Below are positions 1,411 through 60,784 of a stretch of 64,000 nucleotides of DNA, piece after piece. The stretch lies in NCBI GenBank assembly GCA_965649765.1, contig OZ287748.1, positions 104,842,001 through 104,906,000 on the forward strand. Reading direction: 5' to 3'. The translations under genes and the position numbers were made by a program. Below the pieces are notes generated by a model. It was not told where the DNA came from, made no database searches, and saw nothing but the letters and a program-made list of their open reading frames with translations. Positions within the stretch are counted from its first letter, which is position 1. The number at the start of each line of letters is the position of its first letter. The stretch is from Bispira polyomma (taxonomy: Eukaryota).

Positions 1411-4117
1411 TGAAAGCTTGATCTTTGCAGAATTTGTCAGTATTTGTAAAAATAAAATTGATACTTATCTCTCAGCAAACCTGAGTAGCCCTGAGAGCTG
1501 TCAAATTTAAGTAAACCAAAAGCCCTAGAGAATTTAATTGATATGATAAATCAATATTGAATTTTATGCAAATAAAAAGTATTTATACGGTATATTACAT
1601 ATAATATTAGATTATTTGGTCACTAATAAGGAGAGTAATAAACAAGATTGATACTTTTGAACTTCAGATATTGTCATGAAAATATATTATAATATCATTG
1701 TCATGAAATTATTTAGGTTTACCTAATTTACCTAAAATTATTCCATTTTCACTCATATACACATGGCTTGTCATTTCCGTTGACGATAATGTCTATTGTT
1801 TACAAACAAGAGAAGTGGGCAATAAACAAATACTTTACCCAAAAATATTGTTTTTTTACAAGAAATAACTTCAAACAAATAATACCATAATATATCCTCA
1901 GCTCTTGTCAATTAATTACCGGGGTAATGTATCAATTTTATAATTCATTATTTATTTGTATCGGCTCTGAATAGTCGTCAAATATTTTAACATGTAGTTT
2001 ATCCTACATTTTACCGACTGAAAAGAAGGTATAACTTGAAATAAGTAAAATAATGGTCATATATATATATAGATGTTTTATCATTTAGTTGTGGCAATTT
2101 TTCATTTATGGGCTGTTTCTGATGCATGTGACAAAACATGAAGCTATTTTAGTTAAAATTTTATGTTGGAACAATGTCTGAATTTGTTTTCTGTTTAGTT
2201 TATGTTTCATCAATAAAAAAGTGATATTAGGGAGAAACAATGTGGTTGTTTGATAAATTTTGCTTTTTTAATATTTTAAGCGCTTATTTGTTTACTTTAA
2301 TTTGGGGACAGTGGTTGTCACTATTCAGATCTCATTAGAATAGCCGGCCAGTCGAGACTGCCCAATCTCTGACGAAATAATTTGCTCTCGTATGCACCCT
2401 ATGTTACAGTTTAGTTTAAGCTGTATAAATGCCTAATGGGATTAACTATGTAAGCTGGCTTGTCAACAATCGGTGATTTGTCAATTTAAAAACAATTCAA
2501 ATACCGACCATATAAAATTCATGATCGGTCTAGACTGAAAAATCTGTCCACGGTATGAGTAAACATAGACCGAATAATCTGTCTCTATTTAGCAAAATTT
2601 CTTGATGTTATTTTGACGGCTGAATTACAAAAAGGGACAGAATGGAGACTGCTACCAAAACGTTGTAAATTTAGCCCGATGTAAAATGGCAGACAGAGGT
2701 GTGGTTTTTATCTTGTATTACTTGTCGGCATGAAATAACAGAAATTCACCTACTATATCATATATAAGGAAGAAGGATACAGGATAAAATACCTGGCATG
2801 CAGCATTTTGGCTTAATTCCGGGAATTGCTAAAGTAATTTTCTAGTCAAATAAGATATTTAAGAGTAAAAATGGGTAGCCATTTTTATATTTTTTTATTT
2901 ACTTTATCACTTTTACAGGTGTCGCCGTGTAGTGAGTAACTAGAGAACATGTGTACATATAAATGCTGCGTTTGATAAATAAATATTACCTTATATGCAT
3001 AGGTTTCCCGAAATTTCATCAACAGACTTAAAAAAACAAAACAAGGTCTGCTGTTAATTAATCTATTAAAGTGATGAAATTGACTGAAATATTAACTTAC
3101 AAAAAGTTATTTATACACATAAAGTTGAACAAGGAACCACATACTCATTTTGCTAAGAGTAAAGCACACATTATCGGTATACTGCTGACTATTTTGCTAT
3201 GGACATGCGTGAGGAGCCCAATTTTTGGGCCGCATAATCGAGTTTGAGATTTTATCATGAAACATTGAAAAAGAAACAAAAACTCACAAGTAAAAATATA
3301 AAATAAGGATTAATTTGATTCAAATCTACCATTTAAGACCATTTTCGACTTGTGGCCGAACTATAACCACAAGCAGCGGTAGGCAATCATTTCCAAATCC
3401 AATTTTAATATTTTTGTTTTCTTGTCAGTTATTATAGCTTTACAGTCGAAACGTTTGATAAAAAACGGGTCGAATGTCTGGTAGGTTAAGACGTCTGGTA
3501 TTCCTTCAAGAATAAACAAGAGGAAAATGACCTGGCAACCATATCATGAGAATCACACTATAAAGCAAGTTACTTTTTCGTTGTAAAAGTCGCGGTAAGA
3601 GTATATAAATAGAAACTATACCTTTGCAAACAGCATTTTATAAAATCCTAACAACAATAAAGGTTGTGGCTTCACATTTCGCTATTTTACCTTATAAATA
3701 TAAGCATGGACCACGTTTTGTTTACTGGTATCGAAATGACCTTCAGATGTCTCGGAGACTTTTGGGAATGAAAAAAAGAGTACAGAGTAAGGGCACATGA
3801 TCTTCCGAAACATGAGCAATGTGGTCGAAGTTAACCAGGAAGAAACAGCTTTCAGAGACTGTTATTTTATTTATTTTGAAACAATATATTAAAATGTGTA
3901 CATCTCGGTGAGTATAGGACGGAATTTAATATTGTAAAAAGTTTCAGAAAGTTTATCAATTACTTTTTATGGACACATAAATCTTTAAATTGTAGCTTTA
4001 CTGGTAACTTCATTGATTTACGGAAACAGAAACGTGAGTTAATAAGACCCCTAGGTAAGCGGAGTCGTGGCTGATGACTGTGTATATGCCTACATGGAAG
4101 AAAAACTTTGTGAATAT

Positions 4118-12017: not shown

Positions 12018-13967
12018 CTATTTAAATTTAACAATACCTGCCTCACATAAACCTCGTGTCAGAAAATACAAAAACATCAGAAAAATCAATATAAATAAAT
12101 TTACAAATGACATCCTGGAAACAAATCTCATCACAACAAAGAAATTACTACAACTCTGACTACGTCTGGTATTGTAGGAACTACTGTAAGTGGAAAGATA
12201 TGGGGCAAAATACTTTGGAAACCCAGTGTGGACAAACTTATAAACAAGTGTAGCTGTCTTAAACACTGAACGCTGTTCAACAGGGAGCCAATGCAATTTC
12301 TTAAGAACATGAGTTATACTAGTGTATCGACTGGTGTTTGGCACAATTCTAGCTGCACTATTTTGAATGCATTGTAATTTGCATAAATTAAACTTTGAGA
12401 GACTCCTGAAAAGTGAATTGCAGTAATCCAGTCTACTACTGACAAAAGCATTGGCCACAAGTATAGAAGCATCATAAGTGAGAAACCATCTGACACGTCT
12501 AAAGTCACGGAATTGCATAAAACAGCTTTTGCAGACACTCTGAACGTGTTTAGAGAAAGAAAAGTCAGAGTCAAACCATACACCCAGGTTCTTGACAGAA
12601 TCAGCTGGACTGAAAGGGCTACCCAGGATGTCAACTGGAAACAATGCTTTCAACTTATCCCTCTGTTGTTTTGAGCCAAAGATTATGAACTCAGTCTTGT
12701 CGGGATTAAGTTTGAGTTTACCAGTTGACATCCACTCTTTCACATCGTCAAGGCACCTGTTCAACTGTTCAAAGGCAGTAGATGTATTTTTATTGGATAG
12801 ATGCACATAAATTTGGGTGTCATCTGCATAAAAATGAAACTTTATTCCTGTGTATTTGCCAATAACCAATCTGAGAGGAGCAGTATATAATGAGAACAAC
12901 AGAGGGCCCAAAACAGAACCTTGAGGGACACCAAACAAGAGTTTATAAAGATCGGACAGAGTAGAGCCAATTTTTATCAACTGATAACGATCAGTTAAGT
13001 AGGAAGTGAACCATTTAAGAACAGAGCCCGTAACTCCAAACCAAGTCTGAAGACAACTGAGAAGCGTGGAATGATCAATGGTGTTAAAGGCAGCAGAGAG
13101 ATCGAGCAATACCAGGGCAGTAGGTTCCCCTCTTGACAAAGATAGGTAAACTTCATTTTTTATAGACAGAAGAGCTGTCTCAGTCGAATGACCAGTTTTA
13201 TACGCAGACTGGTATGGGTTGTCTAAGTCGTGGACAAAGATGTGATCTAACAGTTGCCTAGCAACCACGCGTTCAACCAGTTTTGATATGAAACTAAGAC
13301 CAGATACAGGGCGATAATTCTTTAGGTCATCAACCAGAAGAGAAGCCTTCTTAATAAGACGAGTAACCACAGCTGTTTTAAAACTATCAGGTATATGTCC
13401 CTCCGTAAGTGAGCAGTTTACAAGTTTTGTAATGGATGGTAGTAATATATCACTACATTCTTTAATAAGAGATGTTGGCCATGGATCCAACATGCAGGAT
13501 TTTGTAGGCGAGTTACTTATTATTTTACTAACATCATCTTCAGAGACTCTGGTAAAGGCAACAATTTCTGGATGATCAGAAAGAGGATGAACATCAATTT
13601 TAGTTCCAGAGACAACAAAAGTATCTCTAATTCTCTTAATTTTGTCCGAAAAAAGGGAAGCAAACTTATCAGCTAGTGATTTATCAGAATCATGGGACGG
13701 GAGTGCCACATTGGTATCCATATTAAGGGTCTTGCGCAGTTCGTGCCACAGCTTCCTGGAGTTGTGACTGTTGTCAGAGATAAGTTTGCTGTAATACACC
13801 GACTTATCCTCGTTAACAAGTACATTGCACCAAGCAATCTGGCGACGTAGTCGACTTCTATTTAGTGGATTCTTGGCCCTTCGCCAAGTTCTTTCATATT
13901 GGCCCCTGAGAGATTTTGCCCGTCGGTAAGAATCAGAGAGCCAATGCACAGAATCTTTCTTTGACAT
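12018..13967 (-). CDS. Non-LTR retrotransposon reverse transcriptase ORF (649 aa; last ~37 aa are read-through into the antisense outer LINE)
   Basis: Longest ORF in the window, with complete RT motifs including YADD. Confidence 0.85.
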   Translation of the reverse strand: MSKKDSVHWLSDSYRRAKSLRGQYERTWRRAKNPLNRSRLRRQIAWCNVLVNEDKSVYYSKLISDNSHNSRKLWHELRKTLNMDTNVALPSHDSDKSLADKFASLFSDKIKRIRDTFVVSGTKIDVHPLSDHPEIVAFTRVSEDDVSKIISNSPTKSCMLDPWPTSLIKECSDILLPSITKLVNCSLTEGHIPDSFKTAVVTRLIKKASLLVDDLKNYRPVSGLSFISKLVERVVARQLLDHIFVHDLDNPYQSAYKTGHSTETALLSIKNEVYLSLSRGEPTALVLLDLSAAFNTIDHSTLLSCLQTWFGVTGSVLKWFTSYLTDRYQLIKIGSTLSDLYKLLFGVPQGSVLGPLLFSLYTAPLRLVIGKYTGIKFHFYADDTQIYVHLSNKNTSTAFEQLNRCLDDVKEWMSTGKLKLNPDKTEFIIFGSKQQRDKLKALFPVDILGSPFSPADSVKNLGVWFDSDFSFSKHVQSVCKSCFMQFRDFRRVRWFLTYDASILVANAFVSSRLDYCNSLFRSLSKFNLCKLQCIQNSAARIVPNTSRYTSITHVLKKLHWLPVEQRSVFKTATLVYKFVHTGFPKYFAPYLSTYSSSYNTRRSQSCSNFFVVMRFVSRMSFVNLFILIFLMFLYFLTRGLCEAGIVKFK

Positions 13968-14858
13968 TCTGGATACAAGTGGTGCATGCTTATCTAGTAC
14001 ATCACCAAGTCATGTATGTATTGTTCATAAAGTTTGGCTACAGAATTGGCAGGTGACTTAATAAAGGAAGTACTCTCAAGATCAGTACGGAGGTCAGACA
14101 TGTTAATACGGTGGTACCTCCTATAATGCACTGTATTAGGAATATGAGCCACTTGTGGGGGAGAGGCAATTGAGCATTTGACTAATGCATGATCCGATAT
14201 GAAATCACAGACTTTGACATCCACAATAGCATCCTGATCACAAGGAGATAAAATAAGGTCCAGAATGTGACCATGCAGATGGGTAGGTTGTCTAACTAAC
14301 TGTTTTAAATCACATGAATCAAGAAAGGTCATAAATTTATGACCGTCACCAACTGGTGCATCAACATGGATGTTAAAGTCACCACAGATATGATATGAAC
14401 TGTTAATGGAAGACAAGAAACCAACAAAAGACATAAATTTTTCTAAAAAAATTACAGGTACATGATCCTGGGGGGCGATAGACGCAGGCAAGCAACAGTG
14501 CGCGACCATGAAGCCCAATTGAAACCACCATATTTTCAAAGGATTGATAGACAGGAGAATCTACTTTATTTGGTTTGTAGGAGGATCTGATGAAGAAACC
14601 AACACCGCCACCAATACGTGAGGGATGAGGAGTTTGAGGAAACACAAAATCTGGAGGAGTAACAGACCGTAGGAAGCTATCCGTATCAGATAGACGGACA
14701 TGGGTCTCAGTAACACAAAGGAAGCCGAGGTCGTGCGATGTCACAATATCTGCAAGGAGTGGACCCTTGTTCCTCACGGATCTAGCATTTAACACCCCGA
14801 GCATGACAGGACCAGGGTTAAGGGACACATCGCCTGCGAGTAAAAGTAACAAGACAAG
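12132..14858 (-). mobile_element. CR1/L2-type LINE (inner), APE+RT, well preserved but lacking its 3' end
   Basis: ORFs 14852-14403 and 14539-13994 encode APE (LNARS, VTET, GDFN, SDH). ORF 13967-12018 encodes RT (NYRPVSGL, LDLSAAF, GVPQGSVLGP, FYADDT). Two frameshifts. Homology stops at ...TRRSQSCSNFFVV. Confidence 0.93.
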
Positions 14859-17305
14859 ATCTCTTCCATTAACAAGGATAATCCCAAAATTCTACATCGA
14901 ACATCAGAGAAAGTTTTCCCCATAAACCACTGCCTTACTTTTATAGCTGAAAAATTTGGAAATTTTTTTTTGAAAAAATCAGCAACATTTGTGACGCCTT
15001 CCCAATGATACATCACTTCAATCCTCCAGCCCCAGTGTACAAGGTTTGTAACCTGTTTCATTTCAGTACACTGTCAGAGCATGAAGTTCTGAAACTCATC
15101 AAATCCTCTTCTATTAAATCTTGTGAATTAGATCCCATCCCAGCAGTTATTCGAAATCATTGTCTTGACATTCTAGTCACACATAACAAACATATTAAAC
15201 TTTTCTCTTTGAGATGGTGTTTTTCCCACCTGTTTCAAGACGGCAAATGTAACTCCCTTGATTAAAAAACAAGGGCTTGATAAAAACCAGCTCAAAAACT
15301 ACAGACCGATGTCAAACCTCAGCTTCGTCTCAAAAGTCATCGAGAAAGCTGTAGCTCAACAAATTTCTGACCATCTTAATAGACAAAACATTGAAAATCG
15401 CCACCAGTCTGCCTATAGAAAATTTCACTCTACAGAAAGTGCCCTTTTTTCCATCAGCAATGATATTAATCTTGCACTGGACTGCAACGACACAGTGGCC
15501 CTCACCCTTCTGGATCTCTCAGCTGCATTCGACACTATTGATCATGTCCTGCTCTGCGACACTCTCAAGCAGTGGTTCGGTATAAATAGCAGTGTTCTTA
15601 AATGGATCAGATTCTACCTTACTCTTAGGACACAAAGAATTAAATTAGATGATCACCTATCATCTTCCATAAAGCTACCATATGGAGTACCCCAGGGATT
15701 CGTCCTTGGCCCTCCACTTTTCACCCTTTATACACATCCTCTCAGCACTGTCATCAATAAACACAATATAAAACACATGTATGCAGATGACACTCAAGTC
15801 TATCTCTCTCTCAATCCACAAAATGCAAATACAAACATAGACCTACTTGCAGACTGTCTGTCTGATGTCCAGCTGTGGATGAACTACTCCAAACTAAAAC
15901 TTAACCCTGACAAAACAGAATTCATCCTCATAGGAAACAAGAAAAACAGTGAACTCCGAAAATCTTTGTTTCCCATCTCCCTGCTGGGAAAGACATACTA
16001 CCTTCCGAAAATGCCAAAAACCTGGGTGTCACTTTTGATTCAGCTTTTTCGTTCGATACTCATATTGCCAACATCTGTTGCTCCTGCTACTACCACATAC
16101 CCGACATCAAAAGAATCAGAAACCACTTGTCCATGGACACAGCGATAACTGTGGCAAATGCCCTTGTGAGTAGCCGCCTCGACTACTGCAATTCTCTCTT
16201 GTACGGAGCAGCTAAGTCACACATTAAAAAGCTCCAGTCCATCCAAAACTACCTATGTAGGATCATTTTTCGCCTGGGTTGTCACACAGACGTCACTCCT
16301 TACCTCAAAAAATTTACACTGGCTGCCCATTAACTCTCGCATTTTGTTCAAGATTCACGTTACTACTTTTAAGGCTGTAGTCACTCAACAACCCCCTACC
16401 TTGCCTCCCTTCTTTCCTTCAGTAACCGCAAGAGAGGCAACAGATTCTCCGTCACTTCGGTCAGACCAATCAGAAAGGCGGGATTCAGAGTGATCACCAC
16501 TGCAGCTCCACGGTTATGGAACAGTCTCCCAGTCGACCTCAGATCAGTTACCACACTTATCGGTTTTAGAAAAAAGCTTAGAACCTATCTTTTTAATCTT
16601 GCCTACCCACCTTAGCTTCCCTCGTGCACACTCTCACTTCCTTCCTTTCGACTTTTCAATGTCCATGGACTCAATGATTGGACCAATTATTCTGCTGTTG
16701 CGTTTTAGAAGATGCCTAGCATCAATAACAATTTACTCTCTTGCCTTATTCTCCTCTGAATATCAATATTAAACAATGCTGAAATACCTATGTCAACAAG
16801 GGTCATCATAGTGGATCTGTCATTCGTCGAAGTAAGGTGACACTGTCTCAAGTATAATGCCCCAATAAAGCCAGATTCACAAGGCAAGGTTACGGAGGCC
16901 CCGAGAAAGGTTAGTGTAGTATGGGAAACACATGAAATGACAAGACAATGTAAAATTCATTTGGGCTTTATTACATAATACAATTATACTGTAATAATCC
17001 CCCCCCCTTAGAGTCACCTAAAGTTCCGGCCAAACGCCCACTTTTCTACTTTAAGGTGACCTTAACGTGGAGGTTTTTTTTATAAATATATTTCTAATTT
17101 CTAGTTACTACGTTTCTACTTGCTACCTTATTAAACCCTTTCAGATTAAGGGGACCACAATTTGAGGTCATTCAGCCGCGTTTCGGTAGTTATGGTGACC
17201 TTAACTTGAGGAGTTTCATTTACTGTTTACTAGTGCACTAAAATATGAACACAATTTGTATAAATGTATATATGTATAAAACTAAGAAACACTAAGAACC
17301 CCATT

Positions 17306-22672: not shown

Positions 22673-24539
22673 TATTAAAATTGTGTATATAAAAAAAACC
22701 TAATTGTAAAATAAGCTCAAATACCTAGAATATTAAAAACAAAAAAAAGCCTCTCTACTGAAAACAAAACACGTAGTGCCAGCCAGCAATCTACAAATAC
22801 AACGAGTCTTGCACTGATGGGATGTTTTACCCAAACACCCCTGACAAGCCTAAGTTACATATTATTGGTGGGGAGTCGATACGTCACATCCTAATGGTTG
22901 TAAGTTTGATCATATACTCCCCCGTTTGATCGTTTAGCTTGCCCGGCAGATCCTATCGTCAATATGTTCTGTCCTACTCTGGCCAGTTTGATCCGGGTTA
23001 AAAAAGTATCAACTCCAAGTTCTGACAGGGTGACAGTAAGTTTGATTGGGGCGCAATACATTAGATCGGGATCTGAGTAAGTTACATCTTACTACTGGCC
23101 CTTTCTATTTGACCAAAAATGGGGCAATTTCGAGTAAGATAGTACCTATCAGACAGAACGTATTGACAATACAATGAAACGTATTCATCAATACAATTTT
23201 GAGTTCCGGGGAGGTAAGTCAGGGTACTTTTGAAAATATTCAACATGTTGAATTTTCTTCCCGACCTTCACAACCACCCTGTTTTTTGCTACTAGACCTA
23301 TACAGACACGCCCGGACCTCAAAATCGGGAAGGTCAAGGACCAATTCGGCATAGTGGAACCACCATTTAAAATCTGAAACATATTATTTTGCATTCATGC
23401 AACTGTAGTTGAATACTTTGTTCTATATATATTCATTTTACATCTGTCTAAAAATTCAAGAAAATATATATTTGTACCTTTTGATCTGCATTCATTATTG
23501 TGCCATTTACCATATATTATAAATAGATTAGTAATATCAGATTTCCACCTTTATCTGGTTTGTTCTTACCAAATAATACTTCACAAATTGTCAAGTTTCG
23601 GTCATAGGTCCATGTCTATGTAATCCAAGTTTCAAAATGTTCCCAGAATTCCTTACCGCATGAGAAGAAATAAAACCGATGTTCAAGAGTGTCTACGTGG
23701 GTACAGTAATTGCAGGATCGTGTTTCTTTAATTTTACATTTATATCAATTGAAATTAGTGTTAAATGTTCGGTTCACCATTTGACAATCTTCAGTGTATT
23801 ACTTTATTCTTATTTTTACATCATTATGAATTTGAATATCTTTAATGTGGCCTTATCCCCTTCTCAACCATGAATTTGCAATTGCCCTGCAAATGATGTT
23901 ACAAATAAGAATATTCATATTCCATTTCATTAAGTTCTTAACCTGACAGAAACTTAGTAGTTGAACATTTGAATTGGGTAAGTCTTTTATTGTTACACTT
24001 TTTATACTCTCTTTAATAATTTTTTACAATTGAGAATTCTATTTGAACATATGTAAATATTGTCAAAAATATATTCATTTAAAATTCTTCCTGTATTTAC
24101 TTTCTTTGTAACTTTGGATTGAGTGGTACAATCAATTTTAGTTTGGTGAAAGTCTAGAAGCCTGCACTATTATAGGTCATATGGTAATATCTTTGTTATT
24201 TGTTGACCTATTTATACTGGTGGTCAAAACTCAGAGGTTTGTGCCTCTTCAGTATTGAAAAAGGTTTATTGTGTGGTTAGCATTGAAAGGCTGCCAAGGG
24301 TGAAGGTCTGCATGGTTGTATAAGGTTTAAACCAGTTTTGTTTAATAATGTTTTGTCAGCACTTGAAAGGCTGCCAAATGTGGAGGTCCACAAAGTTGTA
24401 TAAAGTGTACATGGTATTAATCTACTTATGCCTTGTCAGCTGTTAAATATAATTCCTAGGTGATAACTAGCTCAGCTGGTCTGGTATACGGCCATACATC
24501 TAGCCATACAGCTAGCCTAAATGTTCATGGGGGGATTTC

Positions 24540-24590
24540 ACTCATTGGTTTTAATTTTTTTGGCCAGACGTTTGGCCTCTATATAAACTG
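24540..24590 (+). promoter_or_regulatory. Putative promoter of the YR retrotransposon (inverted CCAAT + TATATAAA)
   Basis: ATTGG at ~24544 and TATATAAA at ~24579, upstream of gag. Confidence 0.3.
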
Positions 24591-25135
24591 GTGTAAATGT
24601 TATAAATCTTTAGTCTAAATAGGATACTAGTGTTGATGTTGGAAATTCGGTTGGGGCTGACATAACCTCATACTGTTACCTTATTTTACAACACTAGGCT
24701 TTGGTAGGTTGTGGCTTGGTAGTCATTACTCTTGCATGTGTGACGGACAACCAAATGTGTAACTGTAACTGTTTGGGGTGTGATGGACAACCTTGTACGG
24801 ACAAAGAATGAGTAGTGCTGGTGCTTAACACGTGGGTGGTTAGACACGCAGGCAGACTCTGTAACACAAAGTGTTGGTTGCTTGGTGGTCAGAAATAAAT
24901 ACTGGGCAGTATATGCTATGGTAGGCCCAATAGTATTTGTGTTTTTAGTAGGGTGTTTTAGTAGGGTGGGTGCCTCGTCACCAATTTTTTGTGACAAAAT
25001 ATTATGCGCAGTCAGCTACAAAGGGCTGCCAAAAACATTGCCTATTGCTTCAAGTGTGACGACCGACACTGTAGACCTGTGGGGGTGAACTGTCCGTTCT
25101 CCCTGAATTTACCTGAGGAGCTGTCAGAGCACGTT

Positions 25136-26151
25136 ATGGCTGAGGTGAACTCCCCCCCCCCCCCCCCCCCGTCATGATGACTATCAGATCCCACCTGGGC
25201 AGAAGTCACCTGCACAAGACGAGACGCCGGAAGCAGCCTCTGATGTAACCCAGGCACCTGTGACGGACAAGCTGGATGCCATTATGCTACATTTGCGTAA
25301 GTTGGACGACCAGTTGCAACAAGTAAAAGGCGATAGACTGAAAGACGTACAAATGTTTAAATTAGCCTGTGTTAATACTGATACTCAGAAAGTAACTTCC
25401 CCAGTGAGATCCCCTTCGCGTACTGGCTATGTGCCAATGTCTGACACTGACTGGGCAAAAGAGGTTGAGAAAGCTAGGCAAGCCCCAGATCCTGAGCTAG
25501 ATGACATCGAGAAACTTGTAGTGCCCTCTACTACTTTCTTAAAGAATAATATATAGTTACAGAGGGGTGTGGATTCCCACCTCACGGCCTTGGACGAAAC
25601 ACACGGAACAGAACTTCAAGGTAGAAAATTAAGATCAGGTTTATTTCGAAATGGTGATAATCATGTCAAAGTTGATATCACGTGACCTCATGAGTACTGT
25701 TTTAGCAATGACAGGTCGAATATAGCTTACGATGATCTTACCGGGATTCAATTCAGCCAGGGTTTCATTGGTTGCGTGTTAGAGCAAAGTAATCCAAAAA
25801 TCAGACAAAACATTATTAGAAATGGAAAGGGGTAAATTGACGTGGGCAAAATTTGAGGCTATTAATCGACTCAGGGCTCGATACACCCAACACACTATTC
25901 ACCCACCACAGCAAAATAGCAAAAAATCAGGTCAAACTAAACCCCCGGCTACTTGTCGTTTCTTTAATAGGGGACACTGTAATCATGACAGTGATCATGT
26001 CGATGAAAATGTTCTTCAAAAACATGCTTGTTCTTATTGCTACAAAACTGTCAAACGCTTTGTCACTTCTCATGGAGAGTCCATGTGTTTCAAAAAACAA
26101 AGTCAGGGTTTAAAAAACTCGGGCAGTGGCAGAAGTGCCCTCGTGCCCTAA
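25136..26151 (+). pseudogene. gag-like ORF1 of YR retrotransposon
   Basis: Coiled-coil N-terminus, then LQGRKLRSG...(W>stop)PHEY...YDDLT..QF..GF and a Cys/His finger CRFFNRGHC...H...HACSYC...H...C. Contains stops and a deletion. Confidence 0.75.
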
Positions 26152-26692
26152 AGGGGCTCAGGAGGATGTTTATTGTAAGATAGACAATACATCTCCCATA
26201 CGTGTGCATAGGGGCAGTATCCCATTGACACGGGACCATAACATGCCCAGTTTGCAACTTCCCCAGTACACCCCTTCTGCCATAACGTCCCCCCTTTACC
26301 TGCCAAAAAATTCACGTGTTCAAGATTTATCCTTGCATCAATCTGAAGAAGTCAAAATTTGCAGAGTACTGGAATCTATCAAGACAATAATTTTAAATGT
26401 ACTAAAATGGCGCAACAATGTTCTATTTCAAAGGCTGAAGGGGCAGGGGAATCATGTGATCATTTGCACGTACTCGTGTCTGATTTTGACAATTGTGAGG
26501 TAAAACAGAATAACACGTGTTTAGACCAGTATAGCTCATATAGTTTGGTGATAAACAATGTGGCCATGCCACAAGAGGGTGACTCTCTTTTTAACCCAGG
26601 TCAATATTTAATCTAGCAATAGGCGACAGTTTTATCAAGGGGACCTTGGGATTTTAAAAGGGGATAGGGAAATCACTACTTGTGTCACTAAT

Positions 26693-28130
26693 ATGGCAAA
26701 AAATGGCCCTAATGAAAAGTTAGCCAATACTGAGTCTGCACCTGTTATGGATGTTCCTTCTATTGAAAATGACGTTATAACAGCAGAATGTCTGTTGGAT
26801 AAAATCACTACTTCTAGTGATACTCGAGTGGGGCAGAATAATGCTACTTTGGGTAATACCAGTCAGGGGTTTGGCTTCATGCATGAATGCATTCCCATAT
26901 ATGTATTACAAGACAAGTCGTCTGTGTTGGAAGCAGAATCTTTTAACTCCTGGGTCACTGAGGCATATCGTGTGGTTCACAACACGGGGGTGGCCAACTA
27001 TAAGGGTGCTAGGTTATTAGTAAATACTGACCTTAACCTTGCACTATGGTTTCAGCTCCTTAAGGACTATCGTGACCCAATGCTTTTTGGTTATCTGCTG
27101 TTTGGGTTTCCTCTATGTGTGGACTATACTTCTTTCAAGTATAATACTGATTGTAAGAATCACACTGGGGCCACTCAGTTTCCAAAAGACGTTGATATAT
27201 ATTTTGACAAGGAACTAAAACATAAATCAATGGCTGGCCCTTATGAAGTGGCTCCAATATCGCCCTTGCATTTATCTCCACCTTTGTCGCGTCCTAAACC
27301 TGGGGATTCGCGCAGAATTATTGTTAATTTGTCACATCCTGTTGATGACTCAGTAAATAGTAATGTTTTGGACGACCAATATGATGGTTATAACTTTAAA
27401 CTTACTTATCTAACTATTGACCACATTGTGGATGAAATTGCTAGAGTTGGCCAATCAGCCCGTCTCTTTAAAATCGACGTAAGTCGCGCATTTCATAACT
27501 TACGCATCGACCCTTTCGACTATGGCGTCATGGGGCTGTGTTGGAGAGACAAGTTTTTTATTAACGCCAGTATTGCGTTTGGTTATAAACACTGTAGTGC
27601 CCAGATGCAAAGGCTCGGGGACTTTGTGCGTCACATCATGTCTACCAAACACGGTTTTTCCTTATATCGATGACATCATTAGCGTCCAGCATGAGGACAC
27701 GGCTGCTCGGGCTTATCAAACCCTCAAAGCTTTAATTGAAAATTTAGGCCTGCCTATTAATTTGAAGAAATTGGCTAAGCCACAATGCGAGGTGACCTGG
27801 CTGGGCATCTTGATCAACACTAAAACGGGCACTCTAAGAATTCCCAATGACAAATTATGTGAGATTCGAGGCATTTGCACTGAATGGTTTGACAAAACTA
27901 CTGCTTCAAAACGTGATTTGCAGTCTTTATTTGGGAGGCTGCTTTACATTCATAGGTGTGTTCGTCCTGCTAATCGCATGCAAGGTGTCCTGTTAATCGC
28001 ATGCAAGGTGTTTTGCGCTGTGCTACCTATAAAACTCACATTAAATTGGACGACCAATTTACGAAAGACGTTGCCTGGTTCAATCAGTTTCTTACAAAGT
28101 TTAATGGGGTCGTTATGCTCTTCCCCAGGA
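26693..28130 (+). pseudogene. DIRS-type reverse transcriptase
   Basis: LLFGFP, NH.GA, GPY, RRIIVNLS, LFKIDVSRAF and AFG, then after a frameshift YIDD, WLGILIN and LQSLFGRL. Confidence 0.92.
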
Positions 28131-28149
28131 ATTCCACCAAATATATACA

Positions 28150-28503
28150 ATAGTACATTATGGGATGATAAACATTTATGTCATGCTGGGTGTATGGGGA
28201 CGTTATTTGAGGAACAAGCTTATTCGTGTGTACTGTGATAACGAAGCCATGGTTCATGTATTGACCTATGGACGTACTAAAGATCAGTATCTCATGTTAT
28301 TTCCTTGCTCTATTTGGTACCTGACTGCAAGCTGTGACATTCAAATGCAATATTCTCATATTCCAGGTGTCAAAAACAATGAGACTGACTGCCTTAGCAG
28401 GTGGTTTTCTGGCAAAACTAATGAGGAAATTGTAAATAAATTAATTACTTGTAAATGGTTCCAAGTTACACGGGAACATTTTACTCCAAACTATAATATT
28501 TGA
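28150..28503 (+). pseudogene. DIRS-type RNase H (N-terminus deleted)
   Basis: MINIYVMLGVW...VYCDNEAMV...HIPGVKNNETDCLSR. Confidence 0.88.
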
Positions 28504-28509
28504 TTGTAG

Positions 28510-29478
28510 GTATTCCACTGGCCTCTTCACTTTTGTCATCTGCTTGCTCTAGGATCCAAACAGCGCTTAGAAAAAATACTAGAACAGCTTATAATTCTCA
28601 GTTTCGCCTATTCCTGGCTTTAGCAGTATTTCTGCAGGCACCTGACTGTACTAGTTTGTCATACATATTGGCGTTTCTGGAGTATCTCCACCAGACAGGC
28701 CTTAAACAGCCAACAATATTGAATTACATGTCTGTTATCAGGCACTTCTTTGGTTATTATAACATTTCTACTGTGGTTTTAGACCACAAGAAAATTAAAA
28801 TGTTACTCAAATCACTGGCCATTAATTCTCCTTATGCCCCACTTGTTAATGGAGTGATAACAATTTCAATGTTGCAACAAATTGTATGTGCTTGTAATAA
28901 AATGGCTAATGGTTATGTGTTCAAGGCTTTATTCCTGGTGGCGTTCTTTGGGTATGTGCGGCTTTCAAGCCTTGTTTCCTCTACTGCTAAGGATATTAAT
29001 GTAGAATAAATGTAGAATAAATTTCCATAAGGTGAAATTGGGTATGCAGGTCACCCTGCCTAGAACTAAGACCCACCAGGTCTATAACCAGAACCACAAA
29101 TTCTGTTTGCCCTTGATCCCCTCATCTACTTTGTGTCCGGTTACTGCAGTCATGAATATGTTTCGGTTAGTGCCTGCTACACCACAAACATTGTGGTTTG
29201 TTTTACCAGCAAAACAATTTTTCACTCCCCTATTGGCTTCTAAAGTACGACAAACTTTAGCTAGGATTATTGCCACCTTGGGCTCTAACCCTTCCCATTT
29301 TACTTTCCACTCTTTCAGACGTAGTGGAGCTACTTTTTCCTTCAATAATAATGTAGCATTTGAGAACATTCGTATTCATGGCAGTTGGAAAAGTGATGCC
29401 ATATTTTCCTATCTTCAAAATTCTAAAGCAGCTCCCAAGGTGGCTCAATCCTTTCAAACACTTCTTCAAAATACATAA
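28510..29478 (+). pseudogene. Tyrosine recombinase (copy 1)
   Basis: N-terminal SAM-like domain, then catalytic motifs GYVR, TKT, FHSFRRSGA, HGSWKSD and FSY. One lesion at ~29000-29030. Confidence 0.93.
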
Positions 29479-29974
29479 TCCTATTTACTACTTTATAACT
29501 TTGGGTTTGGGGTCAGCCCCTTTTATTCATATCGTGTTTAGATTGCTGTGTAACACTACTAAAACATACTAATATGTGTCTAGAAATTGTTGATATGAAT
29601 AAATGGCCCAAAAGTATATATATTTTATTGTTATTGTGTTTAGCCATTCTAGTGATACTATTTAACTTGTTTCATTTATTGGCACATACTTTATCATACC
29701 TTTGGTCTTGCTTTGGGATTTGAACTGAAAACTGACCAAGATTCCAGTAAAGGTTTATGCAAATTGGTTAAACGTTTATTACAGTATGCTTGATGAAGTT
29801 TATTATTAATCAAAAAACTTAAAATATTTAAACACATACCATATTAGCGGTTTCAACTTACTCTCTTGAGTGCTGTCAGCAAAAATATGATGCAAATGTG
29901 CAGTTTGTGTTGTTTGATGTTGGGTTTAACTAACTGTAGTGTTTTAAATAAACTTGTGTGACTGTTTTGTTACG

Positions 29975-30655
29975 TGTGTGTTATTAAAGGTGCTTTTTTA
30001 CATGTGTATTATTGAGGTGCTTTATTACAGGTGTTTTATTAAAGGTGTTTTATTACAGATGCTTTGCTACAGGTGTTTTATTACAGGTGCTTTGCTAAAG
30101 GTGTTTTATTACAGGTGTTTTATTGCAGGTGCTTTGTTACAGGCGTTTTATTACAGGTGTTTTATTACAGGTATTTTATTACAGGTGGTTTATTACAGGT
30201 GCTTTGTTACAGGTGTTTTTATTAAAGGTGTTTTATTACAGGTGCTTTATTACATGTTGTTTATTACAGGTGTTTTATTGCAGGTGTTTTATTACAGGTA
30301 TTTTATTACAAGTGGTTTATTACAGGTGTTCTAACACATGGGCTTTGTTACAGGTGTTTTATTACAGGTGTGTTATTATAGGTGTTTTATTACAGGTGTT
30401 TTTAATACAGATGCTTTGTTGCAGGTGTTTTATTACAGGTGCTTTGTTACAGGTGTTTTATTAAAGGTGTGTAATTACAGATGCTTTATTACAAGTGCTT
30501 TATTACAGGTGTTTTATTACAAGTGCTTTATTGTAGATGTTTTATTACAGGTGTTTTGTTAAAAGTGCTTTATTGCAGATGATTTATTACAGCTGCTTCA
30601 TTACAGCTGTTTTATTACAGGTGTAGTCATATTTTATTACAAGTGTAGTAGGGTT
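29975..30655. repeat. Tandem array, ~14-bp unit (TTATTACAGGTGTT)
   Basis: Directly visible, roughly 45 degenerate units. Confidence 0.95.
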
Positions 30656-32779: not shown

Positions 32780-33297
32780 GTGATAAGATGTTACTACTAA
32801 GATGTATATACCTTAGAGGATGCATACACCTGCCACACCTTAACCTCTAACTTTAACTTTAAAATAAGGTTGTATACCGGACATGAATAAAATGTCACTG
32901 ATAGGATGTATACACCTTAAAGGATACACACCTTGACCTCTAACTTTAACTTTGAATTTTTTAATATATTTAACTCCACTCTAGTACCTTTTAGTAGGTT
33001 ATATTGGGACGGATAGTTGGAACGCTGGAGGAAACACTGTATACAGTTAATCAAGGTTCTACACTGAAACCAGTGGCCCACAGTAAGGAACTACCACCTT
33101 TCCCACATAGACATCTACGGGAGGCAAACTCACGACCATTCAATCTCCAGAGGTGAGAGATCAGTGATTGTGAAGCGCACTGCTTGCTAACCACTAGACC
33201 ACCGCAGCCCCTAACTTTGAGTTTCAACTAAGAATGTCAGTGATAAGATGTAACTGATATGATGTATATGCTTTAGAGGATACACACCTTGATCTCT
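32780..33297. repeat. Three ~90-bp tandem units (GATGTATA.ACCTTAGAGGATACACACCTTGACCTCTAACTTT) with a SINE inserted
   Basis: Units at ~32777, ~32892 and ~33233. Confidence 0.65.
32956..33210 (-). mobile_element. tRNA-derived SINE, more diverged copy
   Basis: Reverse complement of the same family (GGGGCTGCGGTGGTCTAGTGGTTAGC...). Possible TSD TAACTTTGA (32947-32955, 33212-33220). Confidence 0.9.
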
Positions 33298-33989
33298 CAC
33301 TGAAATTCTGGCTCTATATCTTCAACGTTGCAACATTTGGTATAATTTTGATGTGTTGATCTTGTGCCTGGCTCCAACTTTATATAAGTGTACAATTTTG
33401 ATATGTAGACCTTGTGTTGAGTTGACCTTGTGTTCAAATTGTGTTGTGTTTTGTGTTCAAGTTGTGTTTGTGTTTGTAATAACCGAATATAAACAACTAA
33501 ATATAGTAATAAAAATTTCTTCACTGTAATAATAACAAAGATAAAACTGAATAAACTAGTGTCTATATCATTCAGTCCTACCAGGGTGCAGCCCCTTGTG
33601 GTGAGTTGTAGTACTGTTTTAGGTACTCCCTCTGTTGCTTACCAGTACTGCTTGCACAATTTCCCCTTGGTGCGTTCAGTAAATCTGCCATGAGTAGTCC
33701 ATCCCTCTAGGCCCCAGGTATAACACTGTGTTAGTCGTCTTCAGCATCAGGGAGGCCATCGTGGACTGTAGGGTACCTCATCTGCATGAAATTATGCTAT
33801 ACCACACAAGCTTGGCAAAATGTTCGAGACACCTCTCAACCAGTCTTAACTTTAAGACAGAATGTGAGACTAAATTTAGTCTCAATTCTTCTGTGAATAC
33901 CTACACTGTCTGAGACTGTCGTTTGTTTCAACCTTGAGACCTTGAGTTTCTGAAGAACATGTGGCTTTCTAATATTGTGTGTTCAATTC

Positions 33990-35560
33990 TTGCGCATGTC
34001 GACGGATAGGTGAGCATTGATTTTATATGGACAAAAATACACACAATAGCTCTTGATAGGCTTAGCTCTAACTACCTCCAAGAAACTCGGCACAACTCCT
34101 GTCAAAATCACGTCACCTCTGGAGAACACTTTTTGACTCCTGAAAAGTTCGTTATAAAACTCTGCTGGTAAAGTCACAGACAGCACGACCTTGATTGGTT
34201 TATTTAATTTTTACATGTTTATAATGGTATCACATATTATAATCCTAAGGATATTGATTTTTCACATGAGCTACAGCAGACGCACGCAGAGAAGTGCCTA
34301 TACATTACCATAACTTAGATTGTAAAATATGATTACAGATTCCACAGTAGCATCATCGTCTCTGGGGGATGCTGCCATTTAAAGATTTCACACAGCACTT
34401 AGACCTTCCACTACTGCAGCCTACACTACACAGTTTAGAACTTTCTTATTATTCCTGCAGAACGTTAACATGTGTGACATTTCAGTGCACTCAATTTTAG
34501 CATTCTTGGAGTATCTTACTCAGAACGGACTATCTCCAGAAGTGATTAAGAACCATCTGTCTGCTCTAATGTTTATGACTCAAAAATTCAACATTTTGCC
34601 AGATATTTTTCATCACAATGCTGTTTCACTTTTCATTCGCAGTTTGACTTACAGCTCACATTATAGGCCTGCCCTCAAAGGCGTGTTTTCAATCAAGCAC
34701 TTATCTCTCACCTCCCAGGCCTGTCATACCTTACAGGACCCTCTCCTCTTTAGATCCATTTTCCTTGTGGCCTTTTATGGTTCCCTAAGATCCCCACTCC
34801 AGGGCGAAATTCGACCCTTCCAGGCACATTCTCCGCAAGGACGTTATTTTTGGTCCCCCTGGCGTCCACATAATCATTAAGTGGGCCAAAACATGCCAGA
34901 CAGAACTACTACTCATGTTATACAACTTCCTTTTATTTCAGTCCCTCACTTATGTCCAGTGCAGGCACTTTCCGCACTTATAAATTCTTGGGAGTTCCCT
35001 CCCACTGCCCCTCTGTTTGTGTTTGCCAACAAACCTAACTTCCCTGTAATTTATTCCCACGTCAGATCTACAGTACATTGGAATTGACCCATCATTCCAT
35101 GGATTCTACACTTTCCGCAGATCTGGTGCTACAGCAGTTTCAACAACAATGTTTCTTTTCAAAACATTATGGCCCATGGACTTTTGTGTGGCTCTGCTGT
35201 TTGGTCCTACCTCCAATACACCTCCCAAGCGGGGGCCGCGGTGGCCTAGTGGTTAGCAAGCATTGCGCTTCACAATCACTGGTCTCTCACCTCTGGGTGG
35301 CGTGAGTTTGAATCCCTTCAATGCCTATGTGGGAAAGGTGGTAGTTCCTTACTGTGGGCTGCTGGTTTCAGTGCAGAGCCTTGACCGACTGTATGCAGTG
35401 TTTCCTCCAGCGTTTCCAACTACCCGCCCTAATATAACCTACTAAAAGGTACTAGAGTGGACGTTAAGTATCCAAATTCAAATCCACCTCCCAAGCTGCT
35501 TTCATCATGCCTGGCATTTTCTCCTCCATTGTCCCTTCCTCTATTTAGAACGATTTGGGC
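33990..35560 (+). mobile_element. DIRS-like element remnant 2 (RT trace + tyrosine recombinase from 34339)
   Basis: An RT tail (HDLDWF...YNGITY) is followed by YR: TALRPST..AY..QFR.FL, LAFLEYL, IFLVAFYG, LCPV.AL, GFYTFRRSGA and AHG...WSY. Confidence 0.85.
35231..35484 (+). mobile_element. tRNA-derived SINE inserted in the 3' end of YR copy 2
   Basis: Full length, with a 12-bp TSD CACCTCCCAAGC (35219-35230, 35485-35496). Confidence 0.95.
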
Positions 35561-58914: not shown

Positions 58915-60718
58915 TTTGTTGTATTTTTGATGTAGACCTTTCTTATCTTGTATTTTACACTTCTCTTTGGTGTAGACATTTCTTATTTTGTTGTATTTTA
59001 CACTTCTCTTTGGTGTAGACATTTCTTATCTTGTTGTATTTTACTATTTTCTTTGGTGTATACCTTTCTGAGCTTGTTGTATTTTACTTTATTATTTGGT
59101 GTAGACCTTTCTTAGCTTGTTGTTTTTACTATTTTCTTTGGTTTAGACATTTCTTAGCTTGCTATATTTTACTCTATTATTTGGTGTAGACCTTTCTTAG
59201 ATTGTTGTATTTTACTCTATTCTTTGGTGTAGACCTTTCTTATCTTGTTGTATTTCACTATATTCTTTGGTGTAAACCTTTCTTAGCTTGTTGTATTTTA
59301 CTCTATTCTTTGGTGTAAACCTTTCTTATCTTGTTGTATTTCACTATATTCTTTGGTGTAGACCTTTCTTAGCTTGCTGTATTTTACTCTATTCTTTGGT
59401 GTAGACCTTTCTTAGCTTGTTGTATTTTACTTCATTATTTGGTGTAGACCTTTCTTAGCTTGTTGTATTTTACTCTATTCTTTGGTTTAGACATTTCTTA
59501 TCTGTTGTATTTTACTCTATTCTTTGATGTTTACCTTTCTGGGCTTGTTGTATTTTACTCTATTCTTTAGTTTACACCTTTCTTAGCTTGATGTATGTTA
59601 CTCTATTGTTTAGTGTACACATTTCTTAGCTTGTTGTATTTTACTCTATTCTTTGGTGTACACCTTTCTTAGCTTGCTGTATTTTACTCTATTCTTTGGT
59701 GTATATCTTTCTGAGCCTGTTGTATTTTACTCTAATATTTGGTGTATCCTTTTCTGGGCTTGTTGTATTTTACTTTATTCTTTGGTCTACACCTTTCTTA
59801 ACTTGATGTATTTACTATATTCTTTGGTGTATCCCTTTCTTAGCTTGTTGTATTTTACTTTATTCTTTAGTGTACACCTTTCTTAGCTTGCTGTATTTTA
59901 CTCCATTCTTTGGTGTATACCTTTCTGAGCCTGTTGTATTTTACTCTGATGTTTGGTGTACACCTTTCTTAGCTTGTTGTATTTTACTCTATTCTTTGGT
60001 GTACACCTTTCTTAGCTTGCTGTATTTTACTCCATTCTTTGGTGTATACCTTTCTGAGCCTGTTGTATTTTACTCTGATGTTTGGTGTACACCTTTCTTA
60101 GCTTGTTGTATTTTACTCTATTCTTTGGTGTACACCTTTCTTAGCTTGCTGTATTTTATTCTATTCTTTGGTGTACCCCTTTCTTAGCTTGTTGTATTTT
60201 ACTTTATTCTTTAGTGTACACCTTTCTTAGCTTGTTGTATTTTACTTTATTATTTGGTGTAGACCTTCCAAGCTTGTTGTATTTTACTATATTCTTTGGT
60301 TTAGACACTTCTTATCTTGTTGTATTTTACTCTATTCTTTGGTGTACACCTTTCTGGGCTTGTTGTATTTTATTCTATTGTTTAGTGTGCACATTTCTTA
60401 GCTTAGCCTTTCTTAGATTGTTGTATTTCATTTTATTCTTTGGTGTAGACCTTTCTTAGCTTGTTGTACTTGATTCTATTCTTTGGTCTACACCTTTCTT
60501 AACTTGATGTATTTACTATATTCTTTGGTGTATCCCGTTCTTAGCTTGTTGTATTTTACTCTATTCTTTGGTATAGACTTTTCTTAGCTTGTTGTATTTC
60601 AATTCATTCTTTGGTGTAGACCTTTCTTAGCTTGTTGTATTTTACTCTATTGTTTGGTGTAGATCTTTCTTAGCTTGTTGTATTTTACTCAGTTATTTGG
60701 TGTAGACCTTTCTTAGCT
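58915..60718. repeat. Minisatellite, 43-bp unit (TTTCTTAGCTTGTTGTATTTTACTCTATTCTTTGGTGTAGACC), ~42 copies
   Basis: Period measured between GTAGACC at 59401 and 59444. Confidence 0.97.
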
Positions 60719-60784
60719 GGTTCTTTCGAAATTGGAGTTAAAAAAAGTGCAATAAATTGGGTCTGGCGTGTTACCTTTACAACA

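Follow-up and report, generated by a model that had tools for sequence, protein, structure and literature searches.

How does a tyrosine recombinase (YR) retrotransposon produce its recombinase? So far the answer has been guessed, the guess in print being ribosomal frameshifting, and in this study the question was raised by a dead Ngaro-type YR retrotransposon on the + strand of a stretch of 64,000 nucleotides (nt) from Bispira polyomma (contig OZ287748.1), hereafter the window. We consider it very likely, on the strength of the sequence signals, that in the family to which this copy belongs the recombinase is translated from spliced RNA, as a fusion of about 525 residues between the N-terminal part of Gag (Gag-N) and the recombinase. 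A donor in the middle of gag and an acceptor at the start of YR are both present, they agree in phase and are conserved, and neither an ATG nor a slippery site is conserved ahead of YR.

A nucleotide search within this genome yielded 41 matches, with 40 of 50 candidates scored, and the 38 loci fetched account for all 40 non-self matches. The retrotransposon copies compared bear L-numbers, and L004, a less decayed sibling, was used as the reference. The features of the window copy that bear on the question are as follows, with a slash marking each predicted cut (RT, reverse transcriptase; ORF, open reading frame).

25004..26151, + strand: gag (ORF1), broken by a frameshift at the C-run 25152-25170, TAG 25554, TGA 25683 and the absence of about 80 nt at 25813
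25046..25093, + strand: N-terminal C-x2-C-x3-H-x6-C motif of Gag in the predicted first exon, seen in the translation, present in some families and not in others, putatively metal-binding
25266..25370 (ends approximate), + strand: long amphipathic helix of Gag-N, likely a coiled coil, in the predicted first exon (AlphaFold helix 84-119; heptad pattern in the alignment)
25618..25626, + strand: predicted phase-1 donor AAG/GTAGAA (CTTCAAG/GTAGAA), junction between 25620 and 25621, at Gly203 of Gag, where the frame reads ELQ-G
25621..28509, + strand: predicted intron, GT...AG, 2889 nt, spanning the C-terminal half of Gag, RT and RNase H
25954..26088, + strand: C-terminal Cys/His zinc-finger-like motif of Gag, inside the predicted intron, from sequence and alignment
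26112..26118, + strand: candidate site of a -1 frameshift from gag into pol, the heptamer A AAA AAC in frame with gag
26114..28503, + strand: pol, coding for RT and RNase H, interrupted by frameshifts and deletions and terminating at TGA 28501-28503
28494..28510, + strand: predicted phase-1 acceptor TAATATTTGATTGTAG/G, junction between 28509 and 28510, AG at 28508-28509, reading TTGTAG/GTATTCC
28510..29478, + strand: tyrosine recombinase exon, coding for a SAM-like and a catalytic domain, disrupted at TAA 29007 and by a frameshift

The donor and the acceptor each cut a codon after its first base, the former in the gag frame and the latter in the YR frame, and the GT...YAG ends, matching phase and conservation are, at the level of sequence, those of a spliceosomal GT-AG intron. 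A branch-point-like YTRAY at -25 to -5 was found in 17 of 37 copies, against 6 and 2 in controls. The first-pass annotation of this locus had placed the donor after 25620, the RNase H stop at 28501-28503 and the acceptor AG at 28508-28509, with both sites in phase 1, and all of this was confirmed. Its intron of 2.9 kb agrees with the window, but the interval is 3334 nt in L004, since the window copy is shortened by deletions (its intron region lacks about 80, 277 and 92 nt relative to siblings), and 2586-4583 nt in more distant elements. It had also held that the splice removes the zinc finger together with RT and RNase H; the C-terminal motif and both enzymes would indeed go, whereas the N-terminal Cys/His motif and the long helix would stay. 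The further observation that YR has no ATG near the start of its homology holds as well: the YR frame opens at 28497, after TAA 28494, and its first ATG, codon 78 at 28728, falls within the SAM-like domain matched by Pfam (residues 20-87), while an in-frame ATG at 28455 is shut off by TAA 28494 in the window's subfamily. The window copy is itself unable to make the fusion: its gag is frameshifted at the C-run 25152-25170 and stopped by TAG 25554 ahead of the donor, and its YR is interrupted by TAA 29007. In L004, where gag is an open frame of 401 aa, the computed Gag-N/YR product has 525 aa.

Among the fetched loci, the donor was found as AG/GTR in 24 of the 25 copies in which it could be mapped, and the acceptor as YAG/G in 35 of 36. 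The A of the acceptor occupies a third codon position of the YR frame, past the RNase H stop, and is invariant while the encoded residue varies between V, S and L. On the donor side, the 5' part of L004 (about 2.6 kb) contains 209 GT sites, and the mid-gag donor is the sole one that keeps AG/GTR in all nine subfamily groups (9/9). The third bases of gag codons 202-204 are invariant across nine representatives that are 52-80% identical, the only run of three of its kind, and codon 202 encodes Q, L, E or P despite its fixed third base; the background of invariant third bases is 25/330 codons, and 1/10 for conserved glycines. In the copies compared, the predicted donor, acceptor and phase are kept far more than the protein sequence requires.

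The same signals were observed in distant elements of this genome, represented by 40 elements, of which 20 were hand-picked for variety from each of two YR protein searches (117 and 85 matches). Their YRs are 32-52% identical to that of L004 and form 24 clusters at 80% identity. A Gag amino-acid anchor (the KS motif) was found in 30 of the 40, and when the 20 codons before it were inspected, a phase-1 AG/GTA stood 3-8 codons before the anchor in all 30 anchored copies, against 0-4 of 32 in eight control windows; in 17 of the 30 the donor is GTAAG. A phase-1 YAG is present at the start of YR in 37/40 elements, against 1-15 of 40 in nine shifted windows. The idea that conservation of the glycine accounts for the donor was rejected, as an equally conserved glycine, in the H-I-x-G motif of RNase H, has AG/GTR in just 5/36 distant copies. 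Conservation of donor GT, acceptor AG and phase across genomic copies had been proposed beforehand as the check on the splice, and it is found in close copies and distant elements alike.

Outside this genome, a metagenome scan returned eight loci, three of which were examined (L039, L040 and L041). In L040 the donor AAG/GTAATT lies at 510/511 in the same gag linker, and the acceptor TTTTGTAG/G lies at 3951/3952, 334 nt beyond the RNase H stop; L039 and L041 have phase-1 TTTGCAG/G and TTCACAG/G, respectively, at the start of YR. As a separate observation, gag and pol of L040 share one frame, split by a single TGA at 1122-1124, which suggests readthrough rather than frameshift at that boundary. 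No relative was found in IMG/VR, and a Gag homology search gave five unnamed proteins with no fusion among them.

Public gene models were also informative. Among the best 150 YR relatives, five are 502-600 aa long, with the YR match beginning at residue 187-292 and no RT, and these are RefSeq models from amphioxus or acorn worm (XP_078682739.1, XP_078682969.1, XP_078660129.1, XP_066287688.1 and XP_077986280.1). They resemble the predicted fusion in joining an N-terminal part to YR without RT and, in two cases, in leaving Gag at the homologous glycine; they differ in being automatic models named 'uncharacterized' or 'xerD homolog', with a YR about 30% identical to that of L004. A long model of the same family existed for comparison in those two cases, and the other three offered no full Gag. 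XP_078682739.1 (P0079; four loci of 503 aa) departs from the long Gag-Pol-YR model P0093 at residue 174, and XP_078682969.1 (P0107) departs from the long model P0122 at residue 212, both at a glycine aligned with or adjacent to Gly203 and before the K-x-K-x-x-S-G...WPHE block. The GenBank labels of P0093 and P0122 (KAI8490524.1 and KAI8515333.1) present them as pattern-recognition-receptor signalling proteins, but both are Gag-Pol-YR retrotransposon models.

Direct traces of the junction were sought in three sequencing runs of unstated kind from one study. With the window as target no donor-to-acceptor joint occurred among the 15 listed of 38 joints, and with L063 none occurred among 15 joints; the run contigs cover the element evenly, like DNA. 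Partial looks for intron-less genomic copies gave no match starting at the acceptor (40 of 50 candidates scored) and none ending at the donor (40 of 55, 234 and 111 candidates scored). In three neighbouring copies on C11 at 14.1-14.3 Mb (L014, L024 and L025) the leader is joined to late RNase H, and about 160 nt are inserted. The join lies off the predicted splice sites and was read as an internal deletion, and the three are probably a single copy duplicated locally.

Several observations weigh against a spliced fusion. The junction is a prediction from DNA sequence, and not from an RNA read or a transcript. The donor of the window's family is weak: where it could be mapped in close siblings, six copies have GTAGAA and a seventh has GTAAAA, and the siblings do not bear out the earlier view that decay of the window copy is to blame. 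The copies are related to one another, the 30 anchored ones spanning 20 clusters at 80% YR identity but 5 lineages at 50%; the 40 distant elements were chosen by hand, 10 of them have no anchor, and the anchor rule was written after the translations had been viewed; and the gag match of L052 (interval 4583 nt) may come from another element. The RefSeq fusions are automatic predictions whose RNA basis is not visible, so the models alone are no proof, and gene predictors connect RNase H with the YR acceptor as well (P0093, P0105 and P0122, three of the best 150, versus the five models with an N-terminus and YR without RT). To these are added the upstream ATGs and the overlap heptamers of some copies, on which two of the alternative explanations depend.

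The published explanation is that the recombinase arises as a Gag-Pol-YR polyprotein by a programmed -1 frameshift in the overlap of RNase H and YR, Poulter and Butler (2015) being quoted to this effect, with a 'probably', in the available text of PMC13003380. Relative to RNase H, YR is indeed in the -1 frame, with an overlap of the two in 49/75 copies, the element probably frameshifts between gag and pol, and a slippery-type heptamer occurs in the overlap of 12/49 copies, including A AAT TTA in nine copies of one sister subfamily; but 37/49 have no heptamer, 17/49 overlap by 4 nt or less, the window overlap measures 4 nt and has no heptamer, and L040 has no overlap at all, its YR frame opening about 300 nt past the RNase H stop. 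Moreover, frameshifting leaves the conserved YAG and the mid-gag donor unexplained, and we give it very little credence as the general route, though it could act as a secondary one in one subfamily. A start of its own for the recombinase, either at an ATG 55 nt upstream through reinitiation or an internal promoter or at a non-AUG codon, is slightly less probable still. The first-pass annotation had named an in-frame ATG ahead of YR as what would count against its proposal, and such an ATG was found in an open YR frame in 21/75 copies (at codon -18 in 12 copies, which come from more than one lineage), that is, in one sister subfamily and in scattered copies, but neither in the window's subfamily nor in most copies, 54/75 having none. 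The ATG at codon -18 consists of an A followed by the TGG of a conserved RNase H tryptophan, and stops shut it off in other subfamilies as well as in that of the window. In the distant copies, the position of the first ATG downstream varies between codon 5 and codon 120. The sister subfamily concerned (L018, L020-L022, L026, L028 and L030-L032) combines an open ATG at codon -18 with the overlap heptamer in nine copies and may therefore have a second route to the recombinase, yet it still has the acceptor in all copies and the donor in all mapped copies but one.

It is also conceivable that splicing is real but that the window's family relies on another donor, for instance at the H-I-x-G glycine of RNase H or within the 5' leader, and so yields another product, or that the mid-gag donor is used mainly with another acceptor. 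This would suit the weak donor, the CAG/GTGTCA that the window has at the RNase H glycine and the public models that join RNase H to the YR acceptor. Nevertheless, the RNase H glycine site reads AG/GTR in just 17/69 copies, no other GT in the 5' 2.6 kb holds a donor context across the groups, and a leader donor would leave YR without an ATG until codon 73 past the acceptor, so that we regard this variant as improbable to about the same degree as the frameshift.

If the recombinase is a spliced Gag-N/YR fusion, the following programme can be proposed. Unspliced RNA would serve as the genome and as the messenger for Gag, and Gag-Pol would be translated from it by a -1 slip at A AAA AAC (26112-26118). 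An in-frame A AAA AAC (or AAT) is found at the gag end in most aligned close copies and in several distant families (L068, L072, L081, L085 and L086), which probably points to -1 frameshifting into pol, a conserved downstream structure not being established. A fraction of the RNA would be spliced from Gly203 of gag to just beyond the RNase H stop, and the Gag-N part would probably provide the start codon. The fusion would keep the N-terminal helices and lose the C-terminal helical domain and the zinc finger, because the cut sits in a flexible linker: in the AlphaFold model of Gag (mean pLDDT 63) the donor codon falls within a low-confidence linker, residues 198-207, which separates the helix 180-197 from a confident helical domain at about 222-318. 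A P-S/T-L-like motif would stay in the first exon too; its proline is common to all 26 aligned Gags, and a similar motif occurs in four of the five RefSeq fusion models. With the Gag model as query, fold searches returned nothing at E 0.001, the best Z being 5.0. Gag-N might tie the recombinase to the Gag particle or to an RNA-protein complex, much as the integrase of LTR elements is tied in through Gag-Pol; this step, the weakest of the scheme, has in our view an even chance of being right. Control of recombinase dose through splicing efficiency, as first suggested, is plausible. For animal Ngaro elements in general, we lean somewhat towards an integration enzyme that is a spliced Gag-N/YR, with three products (Gag, Gag-Pol by frameshift and Gag-N-YR by splicing) and with Gag-N carrying YR to the particle or target site.

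With regard to the identity of the element, it is Ngaro-like by the structural criteria set out in the available text of PMC4157794 and PMC8547959, the assignment being by structure and not by an RT tree. It has RT/RNase H and a tyrosine recombinase in place of a DDE integrase, as in the order DIRS, and its ORFs follow on one strand as gag, RT/RNase H and YR, as in Ngaro-like elements. In L004, Pfam matches were obtained for RVT_1 (E 5.4e-08) and RT_RNaseH (E 0.003), both within the pol frame of 957 aa, and for Phage_int_SAM_1 (E 4e-05) and Phage_integrase (E 0.0012), and the H-x-x-R and catalytic Tyr regions line up in the YR alignment. Siblings are organized as A1-gag-pol-YR-B1-A2-B2, with split direct repeats and the internal repeats downstream of YR; self-comparison of L004 gave an A repeat of 538 nt at 99.6% identity and a B repeat of 215 nt at 99.5%. 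The window copy has only A1 and one B, without A2-B2, as would be expected of a remnant of recombination between the two B repeats:

24110..24648, + strand: A1 repeat of the split direct repeats, with a second copy after YR in L002, L004 and L010 at 97.6-99.6% identity
29509..29734, + strand: B repeat, the end of the element, with no A2-B2 beyond

Other classes were considered. PAT-like elements combine a methyltransferase with split direct repeats, and the Pfam scan of the three ORFs revealed no methyltransferase family, nor is there room for one after RNase H, the ADCLSR motif beginning 39 residues before the end of pol; by the domain criterion PAT was rejected, although one derived Pat1-like lineage is also described without a methyltransferase in the available text of PMC4157794, and the lack alone does not exclude PAT. 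Dirs1-like elements, with inverted terminal repeats and an internal complementary region, were rejected because the ends of L004 are direct repeats by self-comparison, and no inverted pair was found at the element ends in the window. The same Pfam scan revealed no SGNH hydrolase ORF in the family, and the B repeat closely trails YR. The family shares with the Ngaro-like elements described in the available portions of PMC8547959, PMC4157794, PMC6681497 and 10.1101/2021.08.05.455354 the ORF order, the A1-ORFs-B1-A2-B2 arrangement, the lack of a methyltransferase and a short overlap in which YR is -1 to RNase H. The genome itself is rich in diverse YR retrotransposons, with 117 and 85 scored YR matches to the two queries, many with long open frames, and one YR family has a dozen copies that are 99-100% identical over 401 nt and was thus recently active.

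Elsewhere in the window, long open frames of 663, 188 and 311 aa occur at 12021-14560 (- strand) and 15213-16145 (+ strand), which by their motifs we take to be fragments of non-LTR retrotransposon endonuclease and RT. A 14-bp tandem array of about 47 copies occupies 29963-30624, about 230 nt past the end of the element. Long imperfect inverted repeats resembling a non-autonomous DNA transposon lie at 32975-35461, with arms of 48, 114 and 65 nt at 88-94% identity about 2.5 kb apart, and a 43-bp satellite with a higher-order period of 343 bp lies at 58922-60722.

The exact junctions are now given and open to direct test. If the splice occurs, annotated YR ORFs are second exons, the real recombinase is about 200 residues longer than annotated, and the fusion protein is what biochemical work should use, with Gag-N as a candidate packaging or targeting module. 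A targeting role would fit the account of Cafeteria Ngaros in the available text of PMC8547959, where loss of ORF1 accompanies an altered insertion preference. A set of RefSeq proteins named 'uncharacterized' would also be accounted for, and a retroelement would be seen to retain a large intron, thanks to having the unspliced RNA as its genome; on the animal-wide reading, the frameshift model would be replaced.

In the YR-retrotransposon literature searched, which lies outside the founding Ngaro papers and Repbase, where it may be mentioned, we found no account of such a splice; this applies to the available portions of PMC7192593, PMC8547959, PMC6681497, PMC9341512, PMC2632668, PMC4157794, PMC13003380, 10.1101/2021.08.05.455354 and 10.1101/2022.06.16.496473. 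In print, the YR of Ngaro is proposed to come from a ribosomal frameshift (Poulter and Butler 2015, in the passage quoted by PMC13003380), whereas here the splice signals predict a Gag-N/YR fusion. The first-pass annotation had likened the spliced RNA to the subgenomic env messenger of retroviruses; conservation and the amphioxus models support a Gag-N/recombinase fusion by splicing, but the likeness to env is a loose one, since half of Gag would be fused to the recombinase. In the env messengers of retroviruses and gypsy elements and in the spliced pol messenger of foamy viruses, the 3'-most or enzyme ORF is reached by removing the middle of the genome. Those messengers use a leader or a few gag codons, while about 200 residues of Gag would stay here. 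The nearest mechanistic precedent is the spliced subgenomic Gag RNA of plant Ty1/Copia elements, described in the available text of PMC5580714, where, as here, a conserved alternative splice within the retrotransposon separates structural from catalytic proteins. The two differ in outcome, as the Ty1/Copia splice yields Gag alone through early termination (PMC5580714, same portion), whereas the splice predicted here would drop half of Gag and all of Pol and so create a fusion of the integration enzyme.

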